A stretch of 64,000 nucleotides of DNA from an uncultured Candidatus Saccharibacteria bacterium (lineage in GTDB: Bacteria; Patescibacteriota; Minisyncoccia; Phycocordibacterales; UBA2100). The translations under genes were made by a program, and so were the position numbers. The notes below the pieces were generated by a model. The model was given only the letters and a program-made list of their open reading frames with translations. It had not been told where the DNA came from and did no database searches. How positions within the stretch are numbered: the stretch's first letter is position 1; every line of letters begins with the position of its first letter. Of this stretch, positions 1,222 to 26,141 are shown piece by piece. The DNA is taken from assembly GCA_964399865.1 (NCBI GenBank), contig CAYNRJ010000001.1:202050-266049 (forward strand), given 5' to 3'.

Positions 1222-1236
1222 CCTTGATTATTACTG

Positions 1237-1307
1237 TGGACCTACGGGGAGTCGAACCCCGACCTGTTCCATGCCATGGAACCGTTCTACCGCTGAACTA
1301 TAGGCCC
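1237..1307 (-). tRNA. tRNA-Ala (anticodon GGC)
   Basis: Manual cloverleaf fold: acceptor GGGCCTA/TAGGTCC with a G3:U70 Ala identity pair. D-arm GTTC/GAAC, anticodon stem GTTCC/GGAAC with loop ATGGCAT, T-arm CGGGG-TTCGACT-CCCCG. The 3' tail is ACA, so CCA is not encoded. Confidence 0.8.
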
Positions 1308-1349
1308 GGTACGGGTTCGCAATATCCTAGCAAAAAACTATTCGGGACG

Positions 1350-1808: not shown

Positions 1809-1865
1809 TGTAGCAGACGATGTAATCGCTTCCAGCTTTCACCAAATACATTAGAATGCGGTATT

Positions 1866-1937
1866 CCTCCCGTCGTTCAATGGATAGGATGGCCCCCTCC
1901 GAAGGGGCCGATGTAGGTTCGACTCCTGCCGGGAGGA
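1866..1937 (+). tRNA. tRNA-Arg (anticodon CCG)
   Basis: Manual fold: acceptor CCTCCCG/CGGGAGG, anticodon stem GCCCC/GGGGC with loop CTCCGAA, T-arm GTAGG-TTCGACT-CCTGC, discriminator A. The D-arm pairing is weaker, with G-U pairs. Confidence 0.6.
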
Positions 1938-2894: not shown

Positions 2895-2955
2895 TGAGTT
2901 CAGATTATACCAGAGAAATTAGGAAATGTGGAGTTCTCCCCAACCCGCGTATTTT

Positions 2956-2976
2956 TGGTGGACCTATTGAGAATCG
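2956..2976 (-). repeat. displaced copy of tRNA-Ala 3' end (att-like direct repeat), encodes ...TAGGTCCACCA
   Basis: TGGTGGACCTATTGAGAATCG at 2956-2976 matches TGTGGACCTATCGAGAATCG at 3103-3122 (18 of 18 bp with 1 mismatch in the core). The segment is a degenerate T-arm plus acceptor 3' strand plus ACCA. Confidence 0.7.
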
Positions 2977-3104
2977 CCCGCGCCTCTCGGCTCGCCGTCG
3001 CTCGCCTCGGGCTGGGCACCGCCTCGCGACTCGGCCTACTGGCCTCGTATCGCTCCGGCGTTCGATTCTCTAACAGAGGCAAATAAATTTGCCTCTTTAT
3101 GTTG
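2977..3104. other. 128-bp GC-rich insert between the tRNA-Ala(CGC) gene and its duplicated 3' end; contains a 10-bp-stem hairpin (AGAGGCAAAT..ATTTGCCTCT)
   Basis: GC content far above the flanks, repeated CGCCTC/GCCGTCGCT motifs, and a hairpin at 3075-3096. Confidence 0.6.
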
Positions 3105-3175
3105 TGGACCTATCGAGAATCGAACTCGAGACTGTGCAATGCGAATGCACCGGTATACCACTTACCTATAGGCCC
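3105..3175 (-). tRNA. tRNA-Ala (anticodon CGC)
   Basis: Manual fold: GGGCCTA/TAGGTCC acceptor with G3:U70, D-arm GGTA/TACC, anticodon stem GTGCA/TGCAC with loop TTCGCAT, T-arm TCGAG-TTCGATT-CTCGA. Confidence 0.85.
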
Positions 3176-3226
3176 TCATATGTTCCGCAATACTATACTA
3201 CGACTCCTCGTCTGAAAGTTCTTTTA

Positions 3227-3297
3227 TCGGGCTGCTGGGAATCGAACCCAGTCTACACGAACCCGAATCGTGCGTACTACCGGTATACTACAGCCCG
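3227..3297 (-). tRNA. tRNA-Pro (anticodon CGG)
   Basis: Manual fold: acceptor CGGGCTG/CAGCCCG with the bacterial Pro-type C1:G72 pair, anticodon stem CACGA/TCGTG with loop TTCGGGT, T-arm CTGGG-TTCGATT-CCCAG. Confidence 0.85.
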
Positions 3298-3335
3298 AAA
3301 ACACCTCCAGCCGAAAATAGCATCGTATTTTCGGG

Positions 3336-3409
3336 TGCACCTTTCAGGATTCGAACCTGAGACCTTTCGAATGTGAATCGAACGCTCTAACCAACTGAGC
3401 TAAAGGTGC
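3336..3409 (-). tRNA. tRNA-Val (anticodon CAC)
   Basis: Manual fold: acceptor GCACCTT/AAGGTGC, D-arm GCTC/GAGC, anticodon stem TTCGA/TCGAA with loop TTCACAT, T-arm TCAGG-TTCGAAT-CCTGA. Confidence 0.85.
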
Positions 3410-13860: not shown

Positions 13861-14084
13861 AAGTGTAACGTGTTCCTCAGGGCTATCAAATTTTCACTAA
13901 TATGCTACATTTTCGCGAGTTTCGAACAGGTCAGCGAAGAGACGACAGGGATGTTACCCCTCCCCCTGTGCTCCGCGCTGAGGGGTCGGTCAATTCCTCC
14001 TCTCCCGACCCCCAGGAGGGATTAATCCTCCGCTCACGGCAAGCTCCACCGCCCCCGGGAGCTGCCGGAGCATCCCTCCTGCCT

Positions 14085-14115
14085 CGCTTCTTTGAGTCGC
14101 CCCCAGTGGCGACTC
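14085..14115 (+). terminator. intrinsic terminator just upstream of def
   Basis: Hairpin GAGTCGCC-CCAGT-GGCGACTC followed by TTTCTTTTAG; ends a GC-rich plus-strand segment at 13880-14085. Confidence 0.5.
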
Positions 14116-14145
14116 TTTCTTTTAGGGCTATTGCGCCGTATAGTT

Positions 14146-14697
14146 ATGAAAATGCGAACAATTCTGCCGGAAGTTGAGAATCCGATCCTTCGCGACATCG
14201 CTGCGGACATTCCCCTCGCTGATATAAAAGGCAAAGCCATTCAGAGTCTTATCAAAGACATGAAGGCGCTCCTAGCCAAAGAAGAGCACGGCGTTGCTCT
14301 CGCCGCACCCCAGGTTGGAGAATCAATCCGACTTTTTATTGTGTCGGGTAAAGCTCTCGCTCGAGGCGGACGAAACGCTCCAGATGAACCTGAGCATCAC
14401 GATGATAAGGCACCCGCCCTTCCGGATCAGGTCTACATCAATCCAGAGCTTATAAAAATCTCGCGTGCGAAAAAAGAAAAGCATGAAGGTTGTCTTTCTA
14501 TCCGCGGCAAGTGGGGCATCGTGCCGCGTGCGGAAAAAGCGACCGTTCGCGCGTATGACGAAAAGGGTGTGCGATTTACACGGGGAGCATCTGGTTTCCT
14601 TGCGCACATCTTCCAACACGAAATGGACCACCTAAAGGGTGTCCTTTACACCGATAAATCCGTCGAATTGTACGACGACGAAAAGAGCAATGAATAA
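14146..14697 (+). CDS. def: peptide deformylase
   Basis: GVALAAPQVG, EGCLS and HEMDHL metal-binding motifs. The start is chosen at the internal MKMRT; the ORF track starts at 14092. Confidence 0.9.
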   Translation: MKMRTILPEVENPILRDIAADIPLADIKGKAIQSLIKDMKALLAKEEHGVALAAPQVGESIRLFIVSGKALARGGRNAPDEPEHHDDKAPALPDQVYINPELIKISRAKKEKHEGCLSIRGKWGIVPRAEKATVRAYDEKGVRFTRGASGFLAHIFQHEMDHLKGVLYTDKSVELYDDEKSNE

Positions 14698-15568
14698 GCA
14701 ACCAAAATTCGCCTTTTTCGGCACGCCGCATCTTGCGGCAGTATTCCTCGATGAATTGGAAAAATCAGGACTTACCCCTTCACTTGTAGTAACGACACCA
14801 GACCGGAAACAAGGACGCGGACTAGAGCTTACCGCGCCGCCCGTAAAGAAGTGGGCGGTGGAAAGGAACGTCGATGTGCTTCAGATTGAAACGTGGGATG
14901 AGAGCGCAATAGAAGAGTTGAGGTCCGCGAGTGCGAAAAAAGACATCGATGTATTCGTCGTAATTTACTACGGAAAAATCCTCTCCAAAACGATCTTGGA
15001 TATACCGAAGCGTGGCACATTGAACATTCACTTCTCGTTACTCCCCCGTTGGCGCGGCACTTCTCCTGTCCGCGCGGCGATCTTGAATGATGATCGTGAA
15101 GTTGGTACTTCGATTATCCTTCTCGATGAGAAAATTGATCACGGACCTGTGGTGGCTCAGAAGAAAGTAGCTGTTGAAGAGTGGCCGCCTTCTGCGATAG
15201 ATCTGGAATCCAAGATGACCTACGAGAGCGCGCAGCTTCTCGTCAATATCCTACCGAGCTGGGTACAGGGAGATATCGAGGCTCGTGAGCAGAACCATGA
15301 CCTTGCAACACAGTGCCCTACTCTTGAAAAAGATGATGGTCTCATTTCACTTAAGGATGACGCGTATAAGAATCTCCTCAAAATACGAGCATTTGATACG
15401 ACGATTGGCACTCACGCATTCTTCGAGCGCGATGGGAAAAGAGTCCGCGTTAAGATTCTCGACGCATATCTTGCAAACGGTGCACTGCAGATCGAAGCGG
15501 TGAAGCCCGAAGGTAAACGGGAAATGAAATATGAGGAGTTTTTACGATCAGGAGTACGGCCATTGTAG
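14690..15568 (+). CDS. fmt: methionyl-tRNA formyltransferase
   Basis: Formyltransferase N-domain (HFSLLPRWRG) plus a C-terminal tRNA-binding domain. It overlaps the def stop, and its start is the internal MNKQPKF. Confidence 0.9.
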   Translation: MNKQPKFAFFGTPHLAAVFLDELEKSGLTPSLVVTTPDRKQGRGLELTAPPVKKWAVERNVDVLQIETWDESAIEELRSASAKKDIDVFVVIYYGKILSKTILDIPKRGTLNIHFSLLPRWRGTSPVRAAILNDDREVGTSIILLDEKIDHGPVVAQKKVAVEEWPPSAIDLESKMTYESAQLLVNILPSWVQGDIEAREQNHDLATQCPTLEKDDGLISLKDDAYKNLLKIRAFDTTIGTHAFFERDGKRVRVKILDAYLANGALQIEAVKPEGKREMKYEEFLRSGVRPL

Positions 15569-15599
15569 CGTCCTTGCCTCTATAGAGCGGTGTGTATAG

Positions 15600-15856
15600 A
15601 CTGGAAAAAGATAAGAACACCGGCGTGGTGTGGTGAGGCCACCCAGCCGGCTGTGCGGCAAGTGTGAGCTTGAGCTGGTATTCATGTCTCTATCGCGCCC
15701 GGAGATGTGGAAATTAGTTCGCCCCTACCGCAAACGACGAGGGTCCGTCTCGTTGCCCGGACATCTTGTCGTTCAAGCAGTACGGCGGCGGTTGCTAAGT
15801 CGCTTCCGCCGCCGTACACCTTCATAACCGCCCCTTTCGGCGGTTATACTTTTTTA
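15600..15856 (+). ncRNA. candidate structured GC-rich RNA or 3' UTR element ending at an intrinsic terminator
   Basis: About 250 nt of GC-rich non-coding sequence between fmt and hpf, with multiple internal complementarities. It ends with hairpin ATAACCGCC-CCTTTC-GGCGGTTAT plus ACTTTTTTAA at 15824-15856. No known RNA family was recognised. Confidence 0.25.
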
Positions 15857-16216
15857 ACTTCTCCAAAGAAGATTCTTTATACGCGCACCAACACGACGAG
15901 TGAGACGTAGACCGCGCTGTTTATTCTTGCGCAGCTGACGCTCCACTTCCGCCCTCGCATCATCAATTGCAGCGTTAATACTTTCAGAATTGTTTGTGGC
16001 ACGGACTGGATCCTGACCTGGGACAATCACCTGTATCTCGGCAAACCATAAATTCTTTCCGTGACGCGCTTTCCCTGCCGCACGGCCAAGCTCTACTTCA
16101 AAACGAACGTGCGGCGCTCCCCCAAGGAGTTTCTCAATTGCTACTAATCTTGTTTCTAAATAGTTTCTAGCTTCTTCAGTGAGCTCATAATCCGTTGCTT
16201 TGATGCGTATATCCAT
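15854..16216 (-). CDS. hpf: ribosome hibernation promoting factor (RaiA/HPF family)
   Basis: 120 aa; the YELTEEARNYLETRL N-terminus and beta-alpha-beta fold are typical of sigma-54 modulation protein/HPF. Confidence 0.88.
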   Translation of the reverse strand: MDIRIKATDYELTEEARNYLETRLVAIEKLLGGAPHVRFEVELGRAAGKARHGKNLWFAEIQVIVPGQDPVRATNNSESINAAIDDARAEVERQLRKNKQRGLRLTRRVGARIKNLLWRS

Positions 16217-16220
16217 ATTT

Positions 16221-16508
16221 TTATTTTATCACACGAAGTACTTTACTCCCCTTCTGGTGACCCGAGATAATTCGTACCGAACTAGGAGGAACATAGTAGT
16301 GACGCGCTATTAAGACTCGCAATCGATCATTCGCCGCATTATCCTCGGCCTTCTCCTTCACATGCACGACAAACTCGTCTCTTACCGCCTTTCCAAAATC
16401 TGATTTACCAGGATTAACACCCTTCGCAGTCTGGACCACACTTTCTCTTCTTGCTCCGGCATTTACTTTGGCTCGAATTAACATGACTTTTTCAAGTATC
16501 GGATACAC
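16221..16508 (-). CDS. DUF167 (YggU-like) protein
   Basis: The C-terminal region NDRLRVLIARHYYVPPSSVRIISGHQKGSKV matches the DUF167 consensus. The start may be the internal Met at 16484. Confidence 0.65.
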   Translation of the reverse strand: MYPILEKVMLIRAKVNAGARRESVVQTAKGVNPGKSDFGKAVRDEFVVHVKEKAEDNAANDRLRVLIARHYYVPPSSVRIISGHQKGSKVLRVIK

Positions 16509-16522
16509 TGATGAAGTTCTAG

Positions 16523-18187
16523 TTAATGAGGAGAATCCCTACGAGAATGATTACGGCTCCAATGCCTACCATGAGGAGTGCAGTCCACATGTTGGAAATT
16601 ATAGCATTCTTGGCTATACTGCGACCGATTCCCCGGTAGCGCAGCGGTAGCGCAGCTCGCTGTTAACGAGTTGGTCGTAGGTTCGAATCCTACCCGGGGA
16701 GCCCAGAGTTGGAGAGAGCCCGAAGAATCGGGATTTTGGCGCGCGGCGCGAAGCGCCGCGTAGGGAGGATGCGCCGTGCCGGAGAGTTTTTGATTTGTGA
16801 GTTGCAGGTTCGAGCCGAAGATTTTTTGAATTGCGGATTTTTTGGCGGGGAGAGAGGGGTCATTTTGGGTTTGGGCTAGGCTTTGCGCCTCGTGTATCCA
16901 CGAGCGCATAGGTTCGAGCCACGCACGGCCGTCGCGCTCCAAACGGGCTGCGTGCTCGCTTAAAGTCCGCTTGTCGGACATCAGCGCGCGACGCTTCGCC
17001 AAGTATGCGTCGCGCTCGATATCCTGCGCGATGTAGAGGTCTGTGAGGCGGTCAAGTTTGCGCTCGATGCTGTGCATCTGTTCGCGCAAGTCGCCGACCG
17101 CCTGCGAACTCGTGCGCCCTACGTCGCGCTCGTCCTCTTGCATACGACGCTCGAAATACTGCGCCCATTTGGGCGGCATGACAAAGAGTGCGAGGAGGTC
17201 GGAAACATCGGCGGCGAGCGCTTCTTCGCGGACGTAAGACTGCGAACAGCGTGCCGCCGACTTTTTCGTACAGCGATAGTAGGTGTAGCGGTGAGTATTG
17301 CCATTCTTTTGATGCTTCGTGCGCACTTCGGCCGTTATCGCCATCCCACACTCGCCGCAACGCAACACGCCGCAAAGCGCTTGCGGCTGTGTCGTGGTGG
17401 CCTGCGGGTGGCCGCGCTCGGCCATGACCTTTTGCACTTTGTCGAACAGGCGCTTATCCACGATGGGCGTATGTCGCCCCTCGTATAATTCGCCGCCATA
17501 GAGAAAATGGCCATAGTAAAAAGGATTGGCGAGAATGAAGCGCACGCGGTCGTTGTGTATGCGATTGCCGAACAAACTCCGCACGCCGTTGTCGTATAGA
17601 AACTGCCCGATATCTTCGAGGCGCGAATTGCCTCTGGCGTACAAATCAAAGGCGGCGCGGATTACTTTCGATTTCTTGCGGTCGAGCGTGATGCTCTTTG
17701 TGCGCGGGTCGTTGCGATACCCCGCCGGAGCCGTTCCGGGGAAATCGCCGCGCCGCGCTTTGGCGCGCAATCCTCGCGCAGTGTTGGCCGAAAGTTCACG
17801 TATGAATTGATTCGCCATCCCAAACTCTACCGACATCATCAGTACGTTGTCAGCGGGATAGTACGCGCGGTCGTGGGTTTGGATATGTGATATGACGCCG
17901 CTCTGCAAAAGCCACTGTATCTGGCCGCCGTCCACGGGATTGCGCGCGAGGCGGTCGATTTTCCAACACACAATGCCCTGCGCCTCGCCTTTCTGTACCC
18001 GCGCCATCATCTCGTTGAACACGGGACGGCCCGGCTGTTTCGCCGAGCGCTTTTCTACAAACTCCTCGGCAATTTCGAGCCCCTCCCGCCGCGCGAGTGT
18101 GCGCAATTCCGACAACTGCGCCTCGATAGAGAGCACCTGCTTGTCCTCGACATCGGTACTTTTGCGGGCGTAGAGAAAGAAACGCAT
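16523..18187 (-). CDS. large serine recombinase (resolvase N-domain + recombinase domain + zinc ribbon + coiled coil)
   Basis: N-terminus YARKST...S catalytic region, zinc-ribbon motif CGECG...YYRC, and a coiled-coil tail; high GC. The last ~55 codons run antisense through tRNA-Asn, so the true C-terminus probably lies upstream of 16701. Confidence 0.88.
   Translation of the reverse strand: MRFFLYARKSTDVEDKQVLSIEAQLSELRTLARREGLEIAEEFVEKRSAKQPGRPVFNEMMARVQKGEAQGIVCWKIDRLARNPVDGGQIQWLLQSGVISHIQTHDRAYYPADNVLMMSVEFGMANQFIRELSANTARGLRAKARRGDFPGTAPAGYRNDPRTKSITLDRKKSKVIRAAFDLYARGNSRLEDIGQFLYDNGVRSLFGNRIHNDRVRFILANPFYYGHFLYGGELYEGRHTPIVDKRLFDKVQKVMAERGHPQATTTQPQALCGVLRCGECGMAITAEVRTKHQKNGNTHRYTYYRCTKKSAARCSQSYVREEALAADVSDLLALFVMPPKWAQYFERRMQEDERDVGRTSSQAVGDLREQMHSIERKLDRLTDLYIAQDIERDAYLAKRRALMSDKRTLSEHAARLERDGRAWLEPMRSWIHEAQSLAQTQNDPSLPAKKSAIQKIFGSNLQLTNQKLSGTAHPPYAALRAARQNPDSSGSLQLWAPRVGFEPTTNSLTASCATAALPGNRSQYSQECYNFQHVDCTPHGRHWSRNHSRRDSPH
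16630..16701 (+). tRNA. tRNA-Asn (anticodon GTT)
   Basis: Manual fold: acceptor TCCCCGG/CCGGGGA (U1:A72), D-arm GCGC/GCGC, anticodon stem GCTCG/CGAGT with loop CTGTTAA, T-arm GTAGG-TTCGAAT-CCTAC, discriminator G. The 3' tail is GCCCA (imperfect CCA). Confidence 0.85.
16685..16703. repeat. attL core: 19-bp GAATCCTACCCGGGGAGCC at the tRNA-Asn 3' end
   Basis: An exact 19-bp direct repeat of 23520-23538. Confidence 0.75.
16702..16876. repeat. repeat A (~175 bp), inverted copy at 19425-19599
   Basis: Reverse complement of 16702-16800 matches 19500-19599 with a few mismatches. The match continues more loosely to ~16876 and 19425. Confidence 0.7.
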
Positions 18188-18221
18188 AAGTTGTATTATA
18201 CAGTCGTCCGAGATTCAAATT

Positions 18222-19031
18222 ATGAGAACTATCCGCATATATTCAGACGAGAGCAGGCACAAAAACGAGCGCTTTTTGCTCCTTGCCGGACTATGGGTAC
18301 CGGAAGAAAATGTGCAGGTTGTGGAGGATGGGATACGAGCACTCCGCAAAAAGCATGGATATACAAACTCGGCGGGCAAGAAGATAGATTTTCTCGGCGA
18401 ATTCAAATGGACGAAAGCATCCGACAAGTACCTGCCAGTCTATAAAGAATTGGTTGATTTGTTTTTTGATTGGACTAACGAAGACGTGCTGCGCTCGTGC
18501 ACAATGCTTGTGGATACGCATGATCCGATGGTAGTAGAACACAGCAACATCAAGAAGGAGGGGTACTTCAAACTACTCTACCAACTCTACTACCACAACT
18601 CGCATATTCCTGCGATATATAAAATCTTTCCCGACCGCATTACTAATCCGACCCAGCGGAGAGTCAACTTCGAGACGCTCGACAAGTGCCTAGAGGTAGC
18701 ATTTCATAAGAAATTTACCCCGCTGCTTAATCCAGCTGATCGCCCTGGCATTCGTGGCTTTGTAAACAACATTACCCCGACCGACTCCAAGATGACGCCG
18801 TTCATCCAGCTACTCGACGTGATTATGGGAGCTCTTGGTTATTTACAAAACGGGTTATTTAGAAAGCCGGACGCGAAGAAAGCGAAGGTTGAGCTGATGA
18901 AGTATATCTTCGAAAAAATTGCCCTCTCGGGAGCGATAAAAATATCAGGGAAATCCTACTATGTTGCAAAGTCTACCAAGTTTAATATTTGGCTCTTTCG
19001 TCCGAGAAACAAAAAAGGCCCTCAAAAATGA
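18222..19031 (+). CDS. hypothetical protein, DUF3800-like (IRIYSDES N-terminal motif)
   Basis: 269-aa ORF divergent from the recombinase gene with a 35-bp spacer. The N-terminal I-Y-x-DES motif resembles DUF3800. Family assignment is from memory. Confidence 0.55.
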   Translation: MRTIRIYSDESRHKNERFLLLAGLWVPEENVQVVEDGIRALRKKHGYTNSAGKKIDFLGEFKWTKASDKYLPVYKELVDLFFDWTNEDVLRSCTMLVDTHDPMVVEHSNIKKEGYFKLLYQLYYHNSHIPAIYKIFPDRITNPTQRRVNFETLDKCLEVAFHKKFTPLLNPADRPGIRGFVNNITPTDSKMTPFIQLLDVIMGALGYLQNGLFRKPDAKKAKVELMKYIFEKIALSGAIKISGKSYYVAKSTKFNIWLFRPRNKKGPQK

Positions 19032-19214
19032 GAGCCGTTTTTGTGGAGTCCTGGGAGCTGGGTCAGTGCCCGGTGCGACGTAAGTCGCAGGAGACGTCAC
19101 CCAGTAACTCCAAGTTAAAGATACCAGTAATCTGATGAAGAATCAATGATATCCACATTCCTAGAATATCCTTATCTAGCAAGCTAAAAACGAGATTTTT
19201 GTAAAATTGTTAGT

Positions 19215-19256
19215 TGAAATTGGATATGCTGCCTGCAGGCAGCATATCCAATTTCA
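19215..19256. repeat. 42-bp perfect palindrome centred on CTGCAG
   Basis: TGAAATTGGATATGCTGCCTGCAGGCAGCATATCCAATTTCA is fully self-complementary. Confidence 0.85.
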
Positions 19257-19424
19257 TGTGCGGAGTCAATGAAATTAGCACCAAAAATTGCACTCCGAGC
19301 AAGAATTTTGAGGAAATTGAGATCGATGATGTGTTGGAAAACATACGAATACTCTTGAATTATATCAAAAAGCGTAGGGAGTTGCAGTCGCGTGCGCGCA
19401 TGGGTGGGTGGGGCAAGCACGCAT

Positions 19425-19599
19425 GGGTTCTGGGGCCCCTCTCTCCCCGCCAAAAAATCTGCATTTGCATTTCTTCAAAAAATCTTCGGCTTGAATTTGC
19501 ATCCCGCATCAAAAATCTTCCGGCACGGCGCATCCTCTCTACGCGGCGCTTCGCGCCGCGCGCCAAAATCCCGATTCTTCGGGCTCTCTCCAACTCTGG
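19425..19599. repeat. repeat A-prime (inverted copy of 16702-16876)
   Basis: See repeat A; contiguous with IR-L. Confidence 0.7.
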
Positions 19600-19748
19600 G
19601 CTCATCTCTACGAATTCGCTCGAACCTATTTTACTCTGAATTCCTGATGTTCGCGCGCCTTCGGCGCGCTCTCCCTCGCCCCGCCGCTTCTCATGCACTA
19701 TTTATTTTCGCGGGGGTGGGTTCCAAAAAGGAATGGGCGGCGGCGCGA
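19600..19748. repeat. IR-L, ~150-bp inverted repeat (partner 22802-22949)
   Basis: GCTCATCTCTACGAATTCGCTCGAACC...AAAAAGGAATGGGCGGCGG is near-identical to the reverse complement of 22802-22949. Confidence 0.85.
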
Positions 19749-19883
19749 GGGATATTCAAAATAGTATCCAAAGTTATCCACTTTTCAGAACTGTTCACTC
19801 TCGAGAACAAGATATACAATAAGCGTCCGTCTGAGTACCTCCACGTCTTTGCAGCCGGATTTATAGGCTTAATAAGGAAAAGT

Positions 19884-20255
19884 ATGGAATTACCACAAAA
19901 AGTCGTGGACATTCTTTTGAATGCGGACAGCAAAGCGCTCGCAACCACGGGACCGGAGGGACTCAATGTTGTCCCGGTCTCAACCATCACTCTCGTCGAT
20001 GATAAAATATGGCTCATGAATTACTTCTTTAAAAAAACACTTGCGAACATTCTCGCCGAGCCTTCCGTGTCGCTCGTCGGTTGGAAGGGATTTGAGGGAT
20101 ACCAAATACAAGGGCGCGTGGAGTACTGCGACAAAGGCGCTACATTCGAAGAGGCGCGGCAGTGGGTTAAAGAGCGACTTCCGGACCGGGTCTTGAAAGG
20201 ACTTCTCATCATGACGCCGCAGAACGTACACGACGTCTCTCCTACCGCTGCCTAA
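19884..20255 (+). CDS. PNPOx-like FMN-binding split-barrel protein (pyridoxamine 5'-phosphate oxidase family)
   Basis: 123 aa from ATG at 19884 with an AAGGAAA Shine-Dalgarno sequence. The upstream part of ORF 19392-20255 is translated repeat sequence and is rejected. Confidence 0.7.
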   Translation: MELPQKVVDILLNADSKALATTGPEGLNVVPVSTITLVDDKIWLMNYFFKKTLANILAEPSVSLVGWKGFEGYQIQGRVEYCDKGATFEEARQWVKERLPDRVLKGLLIMTPQNVHDVSPTAA

Positions 20256-20261
20256 GTAATT

Positions 20262-20963
20262 ATGAATGCACAGCTCCACGAATACCAAGTGCTTGCTAAG
20301 CGGCTCGAGACGCCAAGTACCTCTACACTAAAACTGCGGCGGCTTAATGGCTCTATTCCAAAATTCCGTGCAGGTCAATACATCACAGTCTACTTTCCCG
20401 ACATTGACCCCGTGCTTGGCAAAGAGTATACGATCTCAAGTTCACCGAGAGAAGAGGAATTCAACATTACCGTCAAAGCAATCGGTAGATACTCGAAGCG
20501 GTTGTGTTCGCTCAATGCAGGTGACACGTTTCTTGCTTCAGGGGCACAGGGGCGTTTCTACCCAGAAGATACTCATTCTGTCTGCATGATAGCAGGCGGT
20601 ATGGGCGTAACACCGTTCCGGAGCATCATACTTGAAACGACGCGGAGTAAATGCCGCGGCGATATACAGCTCTTGTATAGTGGACGATATTCCTTCGACA
20701 TGCCCTTTAGCGAAGAACTCTACCGCATTTCTTGCAAACTACCTTCATTTAAATTTAGGCGATTTGTTACGCGAGACGCAGCGATTCCAAGGGGCGCAAA
20801 GAGCCATCGAATGCGCGCCGAGGATGTTCTCGATACAAAAGAGAGTACAATGTCGCGCGAATACCTTATCAGTGGCTCTCTCGCGTTCGTCTGTGATGTA
20901 AAAGGATTGTTATCTTCTATCTCTGTACCCTCGGAGCGTATTCTTACAGAAGTATGTTTCTAA
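20262..20963 (+). CDS. ferredoxin-NADP reductase-like FAD/NAD(P)H-binding oxidoreductase
   Basis: FAD-binding RAGQYITV-like motif and NAD(P)-binding GGMGVTP motif; 233 aa. Overlaps the nirK start by 10 nt. Confidence 0.7.
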   Translation: MNAQLHEYQVLAKRLETPSTSTLKLRRLNGSIPKFRAGQYITVYFPDIDPVLGKEYTISSSPREEEFNITVKAIGRYSKRLCSLNAGDTFLASGAQGRFYPEDTHSVCMIAGGMGVTPFRSIILETTRSKCRGDIQLLYSGRYSFDMPFSEELYRISCKLPSFKFRRFVTRDAAIPRGAKSHRMRAEDVLDTKESTMSREYLISGSLAFVCDVKGLLSSISVPSERILTEVCF

Positions 20964-22312
20964 AAATCAGTACAGGTGTTGCCGTGTTTGCTATCTTAGG
21001 TATGGGTGTCGTAATTTCGTATTTTGGACTTGAAAATCTCATTACCTTCTTCCCTTTCATCTACTATTCAGTGATACAGGGCATTGCTATCACGGTTGCA
21101 GTGGTCGCCCTTTCCTTTTTTGTGCTTCGCGTTGTGTACCGCATGCACTCGAAACTCCTCGCAATCACGCTTGGCGTGATTGTTGTAGCGGGACTTCTCT
21201 ATATGTGGGCGGACAAAACGTACTCCCCGCACTTTGCGATGCCAGCTTTTATGCACGTCTATCATCCGGGAGGACACCTCCCCGATTTGCCGTTCAAGAA
21301 TGTCGTCACATTCATCAAAAACTTCAGGAATTTCGAGTATGTAGACGATATCGGCGCAGACCCGAACGATGTGCCGCCGCCAATTACCCGCAATTGGAGC
21401 GAGACAGTAAAGATTTCTTTCACCGCGCAAGAAGTGATTGCAGAGGTTGCAGAAGGTGTGTATTTCAACTACTGGACGTTTAATAAGCAAGTGCCGGGTC
21501 CAATGCTTCGAGTGCGCGAAGGTGACACTATAGAAATGACTATCACCAACCATCCGTCAAGCCTCCATCCGCATAATATCGACCTTCACGCAGTTACTGG
21601 TCCTGGAGGTGGCGCGACACTTTCGCGTGTCGAGCCGGGAGAAACAAAGGGGTTCACGTGGAAAGCGCTTCAGCCTGGTCTCTACATTTACCATTGCGCG
21701 ACGCCAAATGTGAGCACACATAACTCGCATGGGCAGTATGGTCTCATTCTTGTTGAGCCGAAGGAAGGACTTCCGCCTGTTGATAAAGAATTTTACCTTG
21801 TGCAGGGAGAACTCTACACGAAAGGTGCGATCGGAAAGAAGGGACTTACCATATTCGACGGCAATGCGCTTCTCGACGGGCTGCCGAACTACGTGACGTT
21901 CAACGGTCGTATTGAAACAGATGGCAATCCCCGCATGAAAGTGAATACGGGAGACAAAGTGCGCATTTTCGTCGGCAACGGCGGCGTCAATCTCATCTCT
22001 AGTTTCCACCCCATCGGCGAGATATGGGACTCCGTGTATCCGGAGGGCGGCATTGGCGGTCCTATAAACAAAAATATCCAAACGACCGCAGTTCTTCCGG
22101 GTGGAGCAAGTATTGTTGAATTTGTTGCGGAAGTGCCGGGAAACATTGTACTTGTTGACCACGCGCTTGCTCGCATGAACAAAGGAGCATGGGCAATTAT
22201 TGAAGTTGAGGGTAGTCCTCGTCCGGATATCTATGCGCCAACCGACGGGTTTGAGGGGTCTTCAGAATCGTATGGTACTGAAGCGACGCACGAAAAATCG
22301 CATCAGAAATAG
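20954..22312 (+). CDS. nirK: copper-containing nitrite reductase (NirK-type two-domain cupredoxin) with N-terminal 3-TM anchor
   Basis: HNIDLHAVTG (type-2 Cu His pair), YIYHCATP...H (type-1 Cu Cys/His) and C-terminal VDHALARM (His306-like). About 100 N-terminal residues form three hydrophobic helices. Confidence 0.85.
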   Translation: MFLKISTGVAVFAILGMGVVISYFGLENLITFFPFIYYSVIQGIAITVAVVALSFFVLRVVYRMHSKLLAITLGVIVVAGLLYMWADKTYSPHFAMPAFMHVYHPGGHLPDLPFKNVVTFIKNFRNFEYVDDIGADPNDVPPPITRNWSETVKISFTAQEVIAEVAEGVYFNYWTFNKQVPGPMLRVREGDTIEMTITNHPSSLHPHNIDLHAVTGPGGGATLSRVEPGETKGFTWKALQPGLYIYHCATPNVSTHNSHGQYGLILVEPKEGLPPVDKEFYLVQGELYTKGAIGKKGLTIFDGNALLDGLPNYVTFNGRIETDGNPRMKVNTGDKVRIFVGNGGVNLISSFHPIGEIWDSVYPEGGIGGPINKNIQTTAVLPGGASIVEFVAEVPGNIVLVDHALARMNKGAWAIIEVEGSPRPDIYAPTDGFEGSSESYGTEATHEKSHQK

Positions 22313-22801
22313 GGAGCCCGCCGCGAATCCTCTCTGCCTCTCGCGGCGGTTTGTGCGCGCACGGGACGGGTGGGGCAAGCACAAGGCCAGACAGAGCCGA
22401 GGTGCATTTCCGCTAGGGCGTCCACGCCCTTGGATGAGCGCCGCCGTTCTCTTGCAAAACAGAATCAAGAATCTTGAGAAAGACGCGGACATGAAAACGA
22501 GGATGGGGGTTGGCGACGACGGTTGGCCGAGCCCTGCCCAGCTCTGCTGGGTGCGCCGCGAAGCGGACGCACGAGGCGAGGAGGAGCTGGGGGGAGGAAC
22601 CCTTTCTCCCCCCAAACAGATGCGTGCCCGAGCCAGCCGCCCGCAGGCGGCACTGGTGAGGAAAAGCACGCTACCTAGACATCTAGGCGCGAGTAGCCCT
22701 AGCGGAAATGTCCGAGGCGGATGCCGAGGATGGACCCCATGGGCTGGACGCATACCATGGCGGTATGAACGAAGGCACCATATTGGATTTGTATTTACCT
22801 C

Positions 22802-22949
22802 GCCCCGCCGCCCATTCCTTTTTGGAACCCACCCCCGCGAAAATAAATAGTGCATGAGAAGCGGCGGGGCGAGGGAGAGCGCGCCGAAGGCGCGCGAACA
22901 TCAGGAATTCAGAGTAAAATAGGTTCGAGCGAATTCGTAGAGATGAGCT
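22802..22949. repeat. IR-R (inverted copy of IR-L)
   Basis: See IR-L. Confidence 0.85.
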
Positions 22950-22983
22950 GACAAGGTTTGAAAAAAGTGTCATAGTTTCTCTT

Positions 22984-23415
22984 ATGTCGCAGAGGTTTGT
23001 TACGCTGATAATTAACTACTCGGCACTATATATTCCAATAGTCGGAGTCCTTCTGTTTTCAGAGCAAGGAAATTTCATACTTATATTCTCAATTTGCTAT
23101 TGGGCAATAATGCTTCCGATGTTCTTGCTGGATTATTTCGGGTCCAGCATCAAACTTGCTGAGGATAGGCTAATTGGCCATTTTTATTTCCTCTTTAAGG
23201 TTTCTGTGCCGTTGGACAAGATTATTTCTATTGAGAATGGCTACGCGCCAGGCATATTGGGGAGGCCAGCGAGCGTCGTTGTTAAGTATCGCAAAGGATC
23301 TAAGGAGGTGCGCTGGGATATGCTACGAGAGGATTACACCGACGAAGCGCTGAGAGATTTTTTAGGGCGACTAGCAACAAAGCGAACGGATCTACACATA
23401 CCTAATCTTACATAA
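22984..23415 (+). CDS. hypothetical membrane protein
   Basis: 143 aa with two N-terminal TM helices; AT-rich, unlike the adjacent IR. Confidence 0.4.
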   Translation: MSQRFVTLIINYSALYIPIVGVLLFSEQGNFILIFSICYWAIMLPMFLLDYFGSSIKLAEDRLIGHFYFLFKVSVPLDKIISIENGYAPGILGRPASVVVKYRKGSKEVRWDMLREDYTDEALRDFLGRLATKRTDLHIPNLT

Positions 23416-23519
23416 TTCAGTTCCAATCTCGTCCCATACGCGGAGCTTCAAAATATACAGACGTGCCGAATGGGACGTTTTGCATTTTTGACCCCGAGTG
23501 GATTCAAATCATTGTGTGA

Positions 23520-23538
23520 GAATCCTACCCGGGGAGCC
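23520..23538. repeat. attR core: displaced ancestral tRNA-Asn 3' end (encodes ...CCGGGGAGCCA)
   Basis: Exact 19-bp repeat of 16685-16703. Here it is followed by A, completing CCA, and then by a terminator. Confidence 0.75.
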
Positions 23539-23546
23539 ATCAAAAT

Positions 23547-23572
23547 GACCTTGTTTTGCAAGGTCTTTTTTG
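23547..23572 (+). terminator. intrinsic terminator following the displaced tRNA-Asn 3' end
   Basis: GACCTTG-TTTTG-CAAGGTC followed by TTTTTTG. Confidence 0.6.
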
Positions 23573-23595
23573 TATGACCCTGATAGGGTTCGGAA

Positions 23596-24132
23596 CTACA
23601 TCAATACATCCAAAACTTTTTTTATGTTTTTTTCTCGTGTCGCTTCCTTCTTAGAATTGAGCAAAGTCTCTAAATACATCCTCTTATTACTTCTACTGAG
23701 AGCTTCCCATTTCTCTTCCAATTTGAGTTTTCGTAACACTATTCTTAAATCTCTTGGCAAAATTAGATTTTCAACTTCATTTAAAGCATCCCACATGCCA
23801 GTCTTTTTTGCGGAAGCAACAACAGCAAGACCAGAAGGTTGCATTTTTCTCTCTTTAACAAGACGCTTGATATTCTCTTTATTTACCCTGCTCCATTTAC
23901 TCTTAGGGTTTCTTGGAGAAATTCGTATCTTTGTCTTAGTATCGTCTACTTTTCCAACCACACTATCAACCCAACCAAAACACAGACAATAATCTACGAT
24001 TGTCTGTTTAGCTAAATCACCTAACTTTAAGCTAGGTTTGTAATACACAAGCCAGATACTTTTATTCTCCTTATGGTTTTTCTGCAACCAATTCCATAAG
24101 TCTTTTTTATTTTTACAGAGCACTTCTTCCAT
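23596..24132 (-). CDS. YdeI/OmpD-associated family protein
   Basis: C-terminal region ISPRNPKSKWSRVNKENIKRL...SRSNKRMYLETLLNSKK matches that family. The start is chosen at the internal MEEVL. Confidence 0.55.
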   Translation of the reverse strand: MEEVLCKNKKDLWNWLQKNHKENKSIWLVYYKPSLKLGDLAKQTIVDYCLCFGWVDSVVGKVDDTKTKIRISPRNPKSKWSRVNKENIKRLVKERKMQPSGLAVVASAKKTGMWDALNEVENLILPRDLRIVLRKLKLEEKWEALSRSNKRMYLETLLNSKKEATREKNIKKVLDVLM

Positions 24133-24297
24133 ATCAGGTATTATATTAAAATTAGTTCTGAAATACAGGATTTGAAAGCATCTCAAAAATCTTGGAAACT
24201 TCTGAATCTCTTTTGATTGCAGTCCAGTTTAAGGTTCTGAACTCGTCCAGCAGTCGGAGCAAAGAGCTAGAACCAGACCAGATGGTAAAATATCCCT

Positions 24298-24492
24298 ATG
24301 CGCATCACATCAGGTTTTAGAAAACTTATGCCTTCCATTTTAGGCGGTGCAGTTGGTATTGCTGCAGTTATCTACGGAGGCAAAGATGATAGCCCGGGAC
24401 TTCAGCTCATTGGACTAGTGATATTTATTGTCTCGATGGTAATTATGATCAAAACGAGACGAAAGATTACCTGTGATATAGAAAGTGAGTAG
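24298..24492 (+). CDS. hypothetical small membrane protein
   Basis: 64 aa, two TM helices. Confidence 0.3.
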   Translation: MRITSGFRKLMPSILGGAVGIAAVIYGGKDDSPGLQLIGLVIFIVSMVIMIKTRRKITCDIESE

Positions 24493-24849
24493 ATGGTTTA
24501 TACTTTTAGTATGTGGATTAGTAGCCGCTACCTGTATTGGGGGTTAGCACTTGCACTGCCTTTTCTCATCGCGAATGCGCTTGTCAGGATGCAAGCACAA
24601 TTTTTCCTTACATTCATTCGTCCACTCGGGGGAACCACGCGCTTTGAGCAATATCTTGTGCTTGCCCTCATCGCCCTCGTGGGTGTCGGTGGTCTGGTCT
24701 CGCTCGTACCAATCTTGAAAGAAAGGCGTTTCTATATAGTGAACGCGATCGTCGGCGTAGCGTTTATCGCCTTCGCGATTTTTGCAGGGCACGGAATCGG
24801 TTACGATTTCTACAACTGCGACATACTCAAGATCCCGAACTGCGATTGA
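24493..24849 (+). CDS. hypothetical membrane protein
   Basis: 118 aa, 3-4 TM helices. Confidence 0.35.
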   Translation: MVYTFSMWISSRYLYWGLALALPFLIANALVRMQAQFFLTFIRPLGGTTRFEQYLVLALIALVGVGGLVSLVPILKERRFYIVNAIVGVAFIAFAIFAGHGIGYDFYNCDILKIPNCD

Positions 24850-24941
24850 GAGCAACCACACGACTACACAATTTGTCGTTATTAAAGCCAGGCCTCAATT
24901 CCAAGTATCAAGTACAGTAAGCGAGATGCTACTATAATGAA

Positions 24942-26141
24942 ATGGATGTTATCTCCGGCATCTTTTCTTGGCTCGTTAACGTAGCTTCTACTCTGTTGAT
25001 CACTCTAGGCGTCGTTTCAGCTCCTGTTTCTTTGCTACCCGAAACACAGTCAATCGCGGCGGCCACAAGCACTACACAAGCTGAAACTCTGGAAGAAATG
25101 ATAACGGTCAGTCCGACGAGTACTGCCGCAATACCTCCATCCAAGGATTCTCCAAAGAAAGGTCCCTCACATGCTTCTAAGGAACTAGAACCAGAAATAG
25201 CGCCGCTGTTGGAACCTGTGAAGGTTGCAGAAGCAAAAAAAGACGTGTCGCTACAAGCGGCCTCTGAAAGAGCTCGGTCTGTTCTTGTTAACATCCAATG
25301 CCAGTCAAGATATAACACCATTGGAAAATCTACTGGAAGCGGCGTGCTAATTGATCCAAAAGGCATTATTGTAACAAACGCCCACGTGGCGCAATATTTT
25401 CTTTTAGACGAGGAGGTCGCAGATACTGATTGCATAATTCGTACAGGAAGTCCTGCAGCTCCCGCATACGATGCAGAATTGATATTCCTTTCGCCGCAAT
25501 GGTTGGGACGTCATGCACTATCCTTCTCACAAGCGTGGTCGGCAGTTAATGGAGATTACGATTATGCATTTCTAATTATTACTAAGAGCCTGACGGATGA
25601 ACCGTTACCAACGGCATTCCCCTATGTCACTCTGGCCACTGATCAGGTATCCGTAGGTGAGCAAGTTGTTATTGCCGGATATGCCGCTGAATTTTTATCA
25701 GAAGATTTGATCGATCACACACTGTACCCGACCGTTGTGTACGGGAGCGTGAAAAGCGTCCAGTCGTTCGCCGGATCGAATGCGGACGTGCTTCAGTTGG
25801 GAGGTAGTGCAGCCGCACAAGCAGGTTCGTCTGGCGGAGCTATTCTTGGCGCTGATGGGACCTTGCGAGGCATGCTCACTCTAGGATCAAGACAGGAAAG
25901 CACCGAGGAACGGACTTTCGCTGGTATTTCCGCTGATTACATCCGCCGCACGTATGAAAAAGAGGAAGGCAAATTACTAAGCAGCCTCTTAGAAATGGAC
26001 GCACGCTCTGCAGTCAATGCCTTCAAATGGCGTATCCCCGACTTAGCGCGACCTTTGATCAAAAATCTAAACAATCCAAACTTCTATTTTTTCTGCGGTA
26101 CTCCCGAACAACCCTGCCCTCCCGATGCAATTATAATTTGA
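24942..26141 (+). CDS. secreted trypsin-like serine peptidase (S1 family)
   Basis: Signal anchor, GSGVLIDPKGIIVTNAHV (His) and GSSGGAILG (Ser) motifs. Confidence 0.7.
   Translation: MDVISGIFSWLVNVASTLLITLGVVSAPVSLLPETQSIAAATSTTQAETLEEMITVSPTSTAAIPPSKDSPKKGPSHASKELEPEIAPLLEPVKVAEAKKDVSLQAASERARSVLVNIQCQSRYNTIGKSTGSGVLIDPKGIIVTNAHVAQYFLLDEEVADTDCIIRTGSPAAPAYDAELIFLSPQWLGRHALSFSQAWSAVNGDYDYAFLIITKSLTDEPLPTAFPYVTLATDQVSVGEQVVIAGYAAEFLSEDLIDHTLYPTVVYGSVKSVQSFAGSNADVLQLGGSAAAQAGSSGGAILGADGTLRGMLTLGSRQESTEERTFAGISADYIRRTYEKEEGKLLSSLLEMDARSAVNAFKWRIPDLARPLIKNLNNPNFYFFCGTPEQPCPPDAIII

Follow-up and report, generated by a model that had tools for sequence, protein, structure and literature searches.

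Cassettes of the SCCmec type are small, non-conjugative, non-phage cargo carriers that are inserted at the 3' end of the conserved gene rlmH by Ccr enzymes, which are large serine recombinases (LSRs). Their ends bear inverted repeats as well as short repeats, and a single hotspot accumulates such cassettes in tandem. To our knowledge, SCC elements contain neither an internal inverted attP nor an att site inside the recombinase gene. The yeast 2-micron plasmid is laid out as a circle in which two inverted sites delimit two arcs. With regard to serine integrases (S-Int), the use of tRNA genes has been called unreported and rare (14/297; PMC7192596), and the zinc-ribbon motif in attP is displaced by 5 bp relative to attB (PMC3783163). 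DUF3800-associated RNAs (DUF3800-I to XI, Weinberg 2017) occur on either side and on either strand of DUF3800 genes (PMC5737381).

The locus described here lies in a 64,000-nt stretch of DNA, the window, and is probably an integrated member of a large family of small LSR-moved elements in Patescibacteria. More than 566 relatives were found in GTDB species genomes, and all named hosts are Patescibacteria; the family is apparently very large and undescribed. Its LSR acts on the final bases of tRNA genes, and inside the element a second, mirrored attachment site is kept along with a conserved structured RNA. At least 11 tRNA identities or types are used as targets, at their 3' ends, and in most loci with flanking sequence the LSR 3' end overlaps the tRNA 3' end in antisense. 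Architecture counts were drawn from 80 relative loci. In the window, the target is a tRNA-Asn(GTT) gene on the plus strand (16630–16705, start 16629/16630; ARAGORN; Rfam tRNA, 70.9 bits). The LSR gene (16523–18187, minus strand) abuts this gene and reads antisense through it, as an earlier note on this DNA had stated, and its 554 codons match the Pfam Resolvase, Recombinase, and Zn_ribbon_recom domains.

The earlier note had further described a 19-bp repeat, GAATCCTACCCGGGGAGCC, at the 3' end of tRNA-Asn (16685–16703) and again at 23520–23538. The repeat is real: exactly two copies occur in the window, and a search allowing up to three mismatches returned the same two, with 0.03 expected by chance. 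The copy ends were also read correctly. The tRNA-attached copy ends with GCCCA and the right one with GCCA, and a terminator-like hairpin follows (23547–23565; ATCAAAATGACCTTG...). These observations, together with similar tRNA-3' relics beyond the distal repeat arm (Z, see below) in three relatives (L081, L061, and L055), could indicate a single island of approximately 6.8 kb with the two 19-bp copies as att sites, in which the element brought the tRNA 3' end and displaced the ancestral one. However, tRNA repeats of at least 12 nt are missing beyond the element in most relatives, family elements instead terminate at the junction of arm Z and a short core, and a Pfam search revealed no tyrosine integrase in the island. 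In addition, in a close relative (L125) the same tRNA is joined directly to sequence matching window positions 23439–23492, upstream of the right 19-bp copy, and not, as predicted, to the terminator at 23547–23572. We thus consider a role of the 19-bp repeat as att pair very unlikely. The caution raised earlier, that perfect 19-bp repeats are less typical of serine than of tyrosine integrases and that the crossover was uncertain, was well placed, as comparison of the three attachment sites points to a core of 3–4 bp at the discriminator base (tRNA positions 72–74), in keeping with a serine recombinase.

The empty site of L125 reads tRNA–GGGGAGC–ATCAAAATATGCAGACG... and matches window positions 23439–23492 at 90.7%; the promoter is 90%, the tRNA halves are 97–100%, and the terminator is 90.7% identical to the window. 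As L125 joins the tRNA directly to this sequence, the inserted DNA comprises 16703–23446. Its right limit relative to the empty site, judging from this alignment, is a second tRNA-tail scar that had been overlooked before, CGcGGAGC (23439–23446, plus strand; 7/8 bases), which is fused to the native tRNA terminator (~23461–23489). Syntenic relatives with empty sites (L136/L141) likewise bear out that an LSR-driven element is integrated at tRNA-Asn. The final bases of tRNA-Asn (GAGC plus CCA) are element-supplied. Downstream of its own tRNA, at a distance of ~135 nt, L125 carries a diverged tRNA-3' relic, the counterpart of the 19 nt of tRNA 3' end, ATCAAAAT, and second terminator (23547–23565) found at 23520–23565 on the plus strand of the window. 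The 19-bp repeat is therefore most likely older than the island. The insertion itself looks recent, in line with the earlier suggestion: arms Z and Z' are 98% identical, and contigs from several sequencing runs are 100% identical to the window.

The island is divided by two pairs of ~161-bp inverted repeats, 16699–16859/19436–19603 and 19600–19760/22788–22948, which the first reading had missed. A GAGC core is common to three sites: attL (tRNA–GAGC–Y, 16699–16702, tRNA positions 71–74), an internal inverted attP-like site (Y'–GCTC–Z', 19600–19603), and attR (Z–GAGC, 22945–22948). Arm Y (16699–16859, plus strand) represents the P'-side of the attachment site and also forms the 3' end of the LSR coding sequence, its minus strand encoding LSR residues ~443–497. 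Within it, the inner motif AGGTTCGAGCCGAAGATTTT (16806–16825, plus strand; KIFGSNL on the minus strand) is located at a fixed distance from the arm end and is near-invariant including synonymous sites, with a codon entropy of 0.36 compared to 1.39 bit elsewhere, indicating constraint at the DNA level. Arm Y' (19436–19603, plus strand) is a non-coding inverted copy of Y; its outer 66 nt equal Y exactly, while the inner part has diverged and contains a 9-nt insertion. The same gradient occurs among relatives: Y and Y' agree fully over the outer 50 nt in 38/50 loci, but over the inner 60 nt in only 2/50. Arm Z' (19600–19760, plus strand) holds GCTCGAACCTATTTT (19618–19632), the reverse complement of a T-loop-like motif, and arm Z (22788–22948, plus strand) holds the motif itself, AAAATAGGTTCGAGC, at 22916–22930. 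The identity of arm Z stops at the attR core, and relatives end likewise. Arms Y and Z display no obvious symmetry, unlike classical attP arms.

In loci with both repeat pairs, one core is common to attL, the internal site, and attR, and it always spans tRNA positions 72–74. The T-loop-like motif is conserved outside the distal copy Y', where its GTTC lies 23 (22/21) nt from the junction, compared to 19 (18/17) nt in the tRNA. This offset of +4 was observed in about 45 of 47 loci and in the window, where AAAATAGGTTCGAGC lies 4 bp further from the core than the T-loop of the tRNA. For the A118-type (Listeria innocua) integrase, 5 bp were reported. Based on these patterns, we propose that the crossover in the window falls within the attL core, with strand exchange at 2 bp inside the 3–4-bp core. 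On the tRNA side, the LSR would read the conserved T-loop GGTTCGA, probably via its zinc-ribbon domain, which would explain the use of many different tRNAs by the family. On the element side, it would recognize the T-loop-like motif of arm Z, displaced outward by 4 bp, a shift that matches the known spacing logic of attP and attB half-sites of serine integrases. Since arm Y doubles as the 3' end of this gene, the C-terminal residues of the recombinase should not be the same before and after excision: the integrated form has 554 aa, and the excised form would have 510 aa; the computed reading frame has 510 codons when Y is joined to Z'. Such a direct junction of the LSR 3' end to Z', the attP configuration, is present in four relatives (L058, L031, L046, and L020).

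The intact element would accordingly extend from the discriminator core of tRNA-Asn (16699–16702) to the second GAGC (22945–22948), and the adjoining 0.5 kb (ORF143 segment, 22949–23441, plus strand) would end at the scar. This 0.49-kb segment, which follows GAGC with TGACAAGG... and leads into ORF143 (22984–23415), belongs to the DNA inserted relative to L125. It is probably the remnant of an earlier element; ORF143 had no Pfam match. A single current element spanning 16703–23446, with attR at 23443–23446 and Z–GAGC at 22945 as a second internal site, is possible but unlikely. It would fit the absence of the whole block from L125, the GGAGC in the scar, and a weakly matching T-loop-like AGTTCCAAT 23 nt upstream of the scar. 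However, the segment has a host-like GC content of 0.43 and no counterpart among the 80 relatives, and the sequence bordering Z–core in relatives is the native one downstream of the tRNA (in L081, TCACCA and a terminator come directly after arm Z).

With the intact element ending at Z–GAGC, the internal inverted attP would partition it into two segments (recombinase and cargo), both of them enclosed by inverted repeats of ~160 bp. An equivalent internal site occurs in 45/47 relatives, and Y/Y' was found in 58/80 loci. We propose a circular free form that contains attP twice, in inverted orientation, and in which the internal copy would allow segment inversion. Among relatives, both orientations of the cargo segment are found. 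The tRNA would normally be joined to the LSR-proximal copy only. This asymmetry speaks against our preferred explanation, since with equivalent attP copies both orientations of the recombinase segment should occur, whereas an LSR directed toward the tRNA is found in ~47 loci, with 4 ambiguous. For the element in the window, neither an excised circle nor an inversion isomer was detected, nor an attB restored in the same population; short-read contigs break at the repeats. That the repeats are fold-back chimeras of assembly, a reading to which these breaks lend some color, has a negligible probability and is effectively refuted: the architecture recurs in 58 independent assemblies including complete long-read chromosomes (e.g. 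L009), the repeats end exactly on the tRNA junction, and flanking motifs are conserved.

The two cargo orientations would also suit an invertase-type switch, in which the main task of the LSR is to invert one or both segments (cargo and/or recombinase) and so control expression, for example transcription running on from the cargo operon and RNA into the LSR gene, with mobility having become secondary or been lost. The cores are all identical, a requirement for a serine recombinase, and inversion by construction leaves the junction sequences unchanged. We consider this quite unlikely, as the recombinase segment essentially keeps one orientation, presence/absence polymorphism and the diversity of target tRNAs indicate real mobility, and homologous recombination between repeats of 150–260 bp could account for flipped cargo equally well. 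The terminal inverted repeats of ~160 bp on each segment could alternatively reflect tandem accretion of two independent elements with a palindromic attP each, a Y/Y' LSR cassette and a non-autonomous Z'/Z cargo cassette. Layered relics do mark the tRNA tail as a reused hotspot, and a Y-like remnant follows attR in L055. This scenario is nevertheless improbable: Y' is distally flanked by a Z-type arm in 45/47 loci, the LSR cassette is never alone beside native DNA, ~1 Mb of loci contained no Z cassette lacking an LSR, and the required target, tRNA–core–Z', would be of the attL type, on which serine integrases do not act (PMC3783163).

Both segments of the proposed element carry cargo. The recombinase segment contains a DUF3800 protein gene (18222–19031, plus strand; PF12686, E 6.5e-11) that was not found in the 80 relatives. 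The cargo operon, assigned by Pfam (19884–22312, plus strand), encodes a PNPOx-like flavoprotein (19884–20255), an FNR-like oxidoreductase (20262–20963), and a membrane-anchored NirK (20954–22312). The nitrite reductase cargo proposed earlier is a bona fide copper enzyme (E 7e-98 to solved CuNIR structures in the PDB). Downstream lies a conserved structured RNA module of ~385 nt (22353–22737, plus strand; GC 0.64), supported by covariation: its 49 pairs were 95.8% paired, and 20 displayed compensatory changes compared to 9.4±1.8 in shuffles. No Rfam family matched. The module is kept in at least 14 relatives, adjoining arm Z, namely the far Z in at least 9 loci, and flipped beside Z' in L077 and L076. 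An isolated copy of its 5' stem, detected by nhmmer, is located just inside Y' (19387–19436, plus strand), and ~30 relatives have it in the same position and orientation. The view that the enclosed DNA is much more GC-rich than the flanks (0.49 left, 0.44 right) held for the RNA module, the LSR gene (0.59), and the repeats (0.55–0.58), but not for the DUF3800 gene (0.45), the nirK operon (0.49), or the ORF143 segment.

Compared to phage-type large serine integrases (A118/LI, φC31, Bxb1, SPβ SprA), the element has the same three-domain recombinase, a short core common to attP, attB, attL, and attR, an attP adjoining the int gene, and an outer attP half-site motif equal to that of attB but further from the center (4 bp here, 5 bp in LI). 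It differs in its target, the discriminator/CCA end of many different tRNAs, in an overlap of attP with the 3' coding part of the recombinase gene, in conserved arms of ~160 bp instead of ~25 bp, and in the second inverted attP kept inside. Unlike those systems, it has no phage genes, no close relatives in IMG/VR, and no evident recombination directionality factor (RDF); no conserved RDF candidate was found, and minimal recombinase segments hold the LSR alone. As in tRNA islands of tyrosine integrases, tRNA 3' ends are used and displaced fragments are left, which the 19-bp relic resembles; unlike in these, the active junctions have only 3–7 bp in common and the recombinase is not a tyrosine integrase. 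As for DUF3800-associated RNAs, a DUF3800 gene and a complex structured RNA share one small element here. However, the RNA matches none of those motifs in Rfam, and relatives carry it as part of the LSR element in the absence of a DUF3800 gene. Inverted repeats that bound segments and contain the crossover site of the recombinase are shared with Hin/Gin/Cin and the 2-micron plasmid (FLP/FRT), although the enzyme here is an integrase-type LSR and not a small invertase or FLP, and neither an enhancer/Fis system nor replication genes were seen in the element. The proposed circle, hypothetical as it is, would have the 2-micron layout, with a cargo arc seen in both orientations. Compared by their description, the Ccr enzymes of SCCmec belong to a different recombinase clade and use a different target, while the layered scars at tRNA-Asn resemble the tandem accretion of these cassettes.

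The 554-codon open reading frame at 16523-18187 (minus strand) crosses the tRNA-Asn gene in antisense and matches the Resolvase, Recombinase and Zn_ribbon_recom models, as the earlier note had anticipated. In this large serine recombinase (LSR), the PF00239 match (E 2e-21) spans residues 4-148 and is accompanied by PF07508 (E 3e-14) and PF13408 (E 2e-10); 20 homologues all share R8, S10 and the YARKSTD motif. Residues ~340-430, where the coiled-coil insertion of the zinc-ribbon domain that controls directionality would lie, are also conserved. To judge from its sequence, the enzyme is a member of the LSRs, with both their defining domains and their site logic. Homologues number in the thousands, and all named ones are from Patescibacteria (Kaiserbacteria, Paceibacterota, Parcubacteria and others). 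In the C-terminal tails, conservation extends through the part encoded by Y, the repeat arm next to the tRNA, and the tails terminate in an antisense translation of the tRNA T-arm (VGFEPTT). A scan of one genome per species yielded more than 566 relatives, and 80 of these loci (L numbers) were examined. In most loci with flank, the 3' end of the gene overlaps the 3' end of a tRNA gene on the opposite strand, and the targets include tRNAs for Gln, Asn, Leu, Thr, Tyr, Val, Glu, Ile, Arg, Ser and Gly. Two recombinase 3' ends abut tRNA-like sequences not called by ARAGORN (L016, 11398-11480, GGACTCGAACC...; L064, 5607-5690, GGGATCGAACCC...), which may be intron-containing or unusual tRNAs serving as targets. 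In L038 (12271 and 21033), two elements of the family share one neighbourhood, the second being placed as a mirror image across the tRNA-Thr region from the first. When viral contigs were scanned with the LSR profile, the best match was 32% identical, and thus no phage or episome relative was found. No conserved accessory gene that could encode a recombination directionality factor (RDF) was detected, minimal recombinase segments holding the LSR only, although RDFs are too diverse for one to be excluded. Full-text literature searches gave no description of this element family, which is an absence in the literature searched and not proof.

Two abutting pairs of inverted repeats organize the element. 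Pair A, Y/Y' (16699-16859 and 19436-19603), encloses the recombinase gene and a DUF3800 gene; its outer 96 nt are 96% identical, and the diverged inner part includes a 9-nt insertion. Pair B, Z'/Z (19600-19760 and 22788-22948), is 161 nt long and 98% identical. Between its arms lie the genes for a PNPOx-like protein, an FNR-like protein and NirK, and a non-coding stretch rich in GC. Among the relatives, an inverted copy (110-170 nt) of the recombinase gene 3' end occurs 1.8-10.6 kb away in 58 of the 80 loci, those without it being mostly truncated contigs. A second, Z'/Z-like pair abuts the first in L005, L008, L026, L038, L042, L055 and L081. An assembly artefact was weighed as a source of the repeats and seems very improbable: contigs 100% identical to the window occur in several sequencing runs and are broken at the repeats, but long-read complete chromosomes (L009) carry the same repeat. 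The strain of the window is present in runs SRR14271366, -372 and -373 and SRR13076587 and -588. Tandem elements, each with terminal inverted repeats of its own, were weighed as well and seem unlikely. Homology between repeats A and B was unconvincing beyond the motif AGGTTCGAGC.

Arm Y is at the same time the 3' coding end of the recombinase gene (residues ~443-497). Of 50 loci compared, 38 have Y and Y' arms that agree fully over the outer 50 nt and only two have arms that do so over the inner 60 nt; in about 33 of the 50 a recurrent alternative sequence replaces AGGTTCGAGCC in Y'. The motif AGGTTCGAGCCGAAGATTTT of the coding copy keeps a fixed distance from the arm end, and its codon entropy is 0.36 bit compared to 1.39 bit at equally conserved residues elsewhere; it is therefore a predicted DNA- or RNA-level signal besides coding for protein. 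We rejected the idea that CAAAAAAT, within the LSR motif, causes a programmed frameshift, since the heptamer is out of phase. The non-coding part of the recombinase segment contains a perfect 42-bp palindrome (19215-19256; TGAAATTGGATATGCTGCCTG / CAGGCAGCATATCCAATTTCA), within which short-read contigs of the same strain stop, and a GC-rich, hairpin-forming stretch without Rfam match (19040-19110) directly past the DUF3800 stop codon.

The junctions of these arms read tRNA...GGG-GAGC-CCAGAG at attL, ...CTCTGG-GCTC-ATCTCT at the internal site and ...AGAGAT-GAGC-TGACAA at attR; further right, a scar reads ...ACGCG-GAGC-TTCAAA. Wherever attL (tRNA–core–Y), the internal inverted site (Z–core–Y) and attR (Z–core–downstream DNA) are all available, they have one core in common. 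Such cores of 3-7 bp were found in the window and seven relatives (GAGC, GTACC, CAC, CTC, CTCCA, TCACCA), and because they always cover tRNA positions 72-74, we infer a crossover at the discriminator base. Arm Z of L081 runs directly into a native tRNA tail, TCACCA plus a terminator hairpin. Outside the distal copy Y' there is a conserved AAAATAGGTTCGAGC, after which come about 14 nt. Counted from the repeat boundary, the GTTC of AAAATAGGTTCGAGC is at 23 (22/21) nt; counted from the other boundary, that of the tRNA T-loop is at 19 (18/17) nt. This offset of +4 occurs in about 45 of 47 loci and also in the window. The A118-type integrase of Listeria innocua (LI integrase) recognizes a zinc-ribbon-domain motif that is alike in attP and attB and lies 5 bp nearer the centre in attB, a difference underlying its site choice (PMC3783163). 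The offset is thus 5 bp in the LI integrase and 4 bp in the present family; by the LI motif rule (PMC3783163), the tRNA side would be a B-type and arm Z a P-type half-site. In four loci (L058, L031, L046, L020), the recombinase 3' end is joined straight to Z' without a tRNA, which is the attP configuration, and the neighbours are methylase, restriction and peptidase genes. L058, L031 and L020, single-attP loci with methylase, restriction-modification and peptidase genes as cargo, may represent episomes or flipped isomers.

Insertion of the element is apparent from empty sites. A metagenome scan with the 3' 30-mer of tRNA-Asn recovered L125, a close relative (promoter region 90% identical to the window, tRNA halves 97-100%) in which ATCAAAATATGCAGACGTCCCGAACGGGACGTTTTGCATTTTTGAC, matching window 23439-23492 at 90.7%, is directly joined to the tRNA end and followed by matches to window 26.9-27.5 kb. 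Compared to this site, the inserted DNA is 16703-23446 (6,744 bp), with GGAGC on both sides. The tRNA-Asn gene of L125 (reverse complement, 672-968) is itself interrupted by ~220 nt in the anticodon-loop region, its 5' half at 672-710 and its 3' half at 930-968, and the interruption may be a tRNA intron. L136/L141 provide a second empty site: they keep the upstream gene order of window 7.3-14.7 kb, and CA and a terminator come after their tRNA-Asn. Exact matches to proteins encoded in the flanks and the island were found in same-strain contigs only, which were broken at repeats and gave no empty site.

The earlier note had proposed other ends for the island, namely two copies of a 19-bp repeat. 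Its observations on this repeat proved accurate: the 19-mer GAATCCTACCCGGGGAGCC occurs in the window only at 16685-16703, within tRNA-Asn(GTT) (16630-16705; ARAGORN and Rfam), and at 23520-23538, even with 3 mismatches (0.03 expected by chance), and the tRNA-attached copy reads GCCCA, the right one GCCA followed by a hairpin and T-run (23547-23565). The interpretation did not hold, since the empty-site junction lies upstream of the right copy. A metagenome scan with the flank of the terminator at 23547-23565, which the note had expected to follow tRNA-Asn directly in an empty site, gave 0 matches. Because L125 has a diverged tRNA-3' relic of its own ~135 nt downstream, and because the window copy shares ATCAAAAT with the native tail, the 19-bp repeat is, on these comparisons, an older relic and does not represent the att sites used by the element now present. 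T-loop microhomology as its source predicts a junction different from the one seen. For annotation, direct repeats at tRNA ends can thus be old relics instead of the ends of the element now present.

Arm Z ends at 22948, in the way that relatives also end. For this reason the 0.49-kb ORF143 segment to its right (22949-23441), which has no Pfam match and no counterpart among the 80 relatives, would most simply be a remnant of an earlier insertion, with the scar (23439-23446) as its right junction. A single larger element was weighed as well; that ORF143 is part of the present element, although the segment lies within the DNA absent from L125, seems rather unlikely to us. Relics of tRNA tails also occur in L081, L061, L055 and L105, and tRNA tails are thus reused hotspots. 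In L105 (tRNA sense), the ~80 nt past the tRNA-Asn end comprise a 46-nt Y-like remnant (GAAGAGTTGG...) and, after it, another partial copy of the tRNA, from GGTCGTAGGTTCGA to GCCA; this tail resembles an element of which nearly everything has been deleted. In the window, the relics are bordered on their right by an OmdA/YdeI-domain gene (23596-24186, minus strand) within a very AT-rich stretch, whose GC content (0.35-0.37) is the lowest of the 10-30 kb region. The five-tRNA cluster at 1236-3409 (Ala, Arg, Ala, Pro, Val) has no recombinase nearby in the window.

The recombinase faces the tRNA in ~47 loci, the four attP-type loci being the only possible exceptions. L077 and L076 have the cargo segment in the opposite orientation to at least nine other loci, a comparison between species and not within one population; there, the structured RNA described below adjoins Z' and points at the recombinase. 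An excised or inverted form of the window element was not observed. These arrangements suggest a mechanism in which a Z–core–Y attP would recombine with the tRNA end through exchange of 2 bp at the discriminator, the recombinase reading the T-loop. The free form would be a circle with two inverted attP copies, and excision would restore targets reading tRNA–GAGC–TGACAAGG or tRNA–GGAGC–TTCAAAATATAC. The internal attP copy would permit segment inversion; a pure inversion switch was weighed against the insertion seen at the empty sites. In a hypothetical Y–Z' joint, the recombinase is computed to have 510 instead of 554 aa, 44 residues fewer. The recombinase may be kept facing the tRNA by the difference between the inner motifs of Y and Y', or by selection against read-through from the tRNA into the recombinase gene.

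The island as a whole had been described as more GC-rich than its surroundings. This is true of the recombinase gene (0.59), the repeats (0.55-0.58) and the stretch at 22353-22737 (0.64), but not of the DUF3800 gene (0.45), the nirK operon (0.49) and the ORF143 segment (0.43), which resemble the flanks (left 0.49, right 0.44). The proposed nitrite reductase cargo was borne out: residues 130-428 of NirK match solved copper nitrite reductases (2zoo, 1kbv, 5tb7) with an E value of 7e-98, the protein also matches Cu-oxidase_3, and homology over two cupredoxin domains confirms a predicted copper-containing nitrite reductase. Cargo varies among relatives. None of the 80 relatives contains DUF3800, PNPOx or ORF143, and for the FNR-like gene they show no more than weak similarity (27-29% identity; L069, L023). 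One further NirK homologue, with 54% identity, was found among them (L055, 18955-20031); it is situated outside the element of that locus, ~7.5 kb past the tRNA. nirK is known in Kaiserbacteria, where recent transfer was not thought likely, and recent transfer was not the explanation given for its patchy occurrence in Parcubacteria (PMC5581439). In the window, nirK rides a mobile element.

The GC-rich stretch at 22353-22737 is 70-97% conserved in many relatives, in each case just inside arm Z, and is predicted to fold into a structure of 49 pairs (95.8% of cells paired in an alignment of 14 copies). Compensatory changes occur at 20 pairs, a value reached in 0 of 500 shuffles (9.4±1.8), and slid controls gave 5 or fewer. 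G·U pairs are on the window plus strand, and variable hairpins are inserted at fixed places. Within 14000-26000, Rfam 15 (E<=1) matched the tRNA alone, with no family for this RNA. A solitary copy of the 5' stem of the RNA is located just inside Y', both in ~30 loci and at window 19387-19436. A role as target guide was rejected, the longest match to the own tRNA end averaging 7.9 nt compared to 7.4 nt in mismatched pairs. DUF3800 genes associate with diverse structured RNAs (PMC5737381); the present RNA, in contrast, follows the recombinase element and not DUF3800.

Taken together, the elements may form a distinct class of Patescibacteria serine-recombinase elements that recognize the universal T-loop of tRNAs, have their crossover at the discriminator and form circles with two inverted ~320-bp attP copies. 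Direction and expression would be controlled without a protein RDF, via segment inversion, a state-dependent recombinase C-terminus and/or the ~385-nt structured RNA adjoining Z, which would then be a new class of RNA acting in recombination or its regulation. We offer this joint reading tentatively and hold it, in its entirety, to be possible but doubtful. To our knowledge, the ultra-small Patescibacteria have no known conjugative systems, and the element is a route by which they may exchange cargo, including nirK and restriction-modification genes. Hundreds of family members in species-representative genomes target tRNAs, with a target logic that appears readable from the T-loop motif, the 4-bp attB/attP offset and the discriminator crossover. 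If this is confirmed, genome engineering would have at its disposal natural, related integrases whose target cores differ and can be predicted.

Islands at tRNA genes that depend on tyrosine integrases carry the integrase at their edge, whereas no Phage_integrase domain was matched by Pfam among the island ORFs of the window. Hin/Gin-like invertase switches have segments that lie between inverted crossover sites and occur in both orientations; the window has inverted sites, and the flipped cargo segment was seen between species. Those invertases are small serine recombinases with a C-terminal HTH, and the window protein is an integrase-type LSR. Targeting of tRNA genes by serine integrases has been called unreported and rare (PMC7192596). 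In contrast to the serine-integrase systems described, the present family targets tRNAs systematically, has an attP overlapping the coding end of the recombinase gene and conserved arms of ~160 bp, retains an inverted attP and is associated with a structured RNA.
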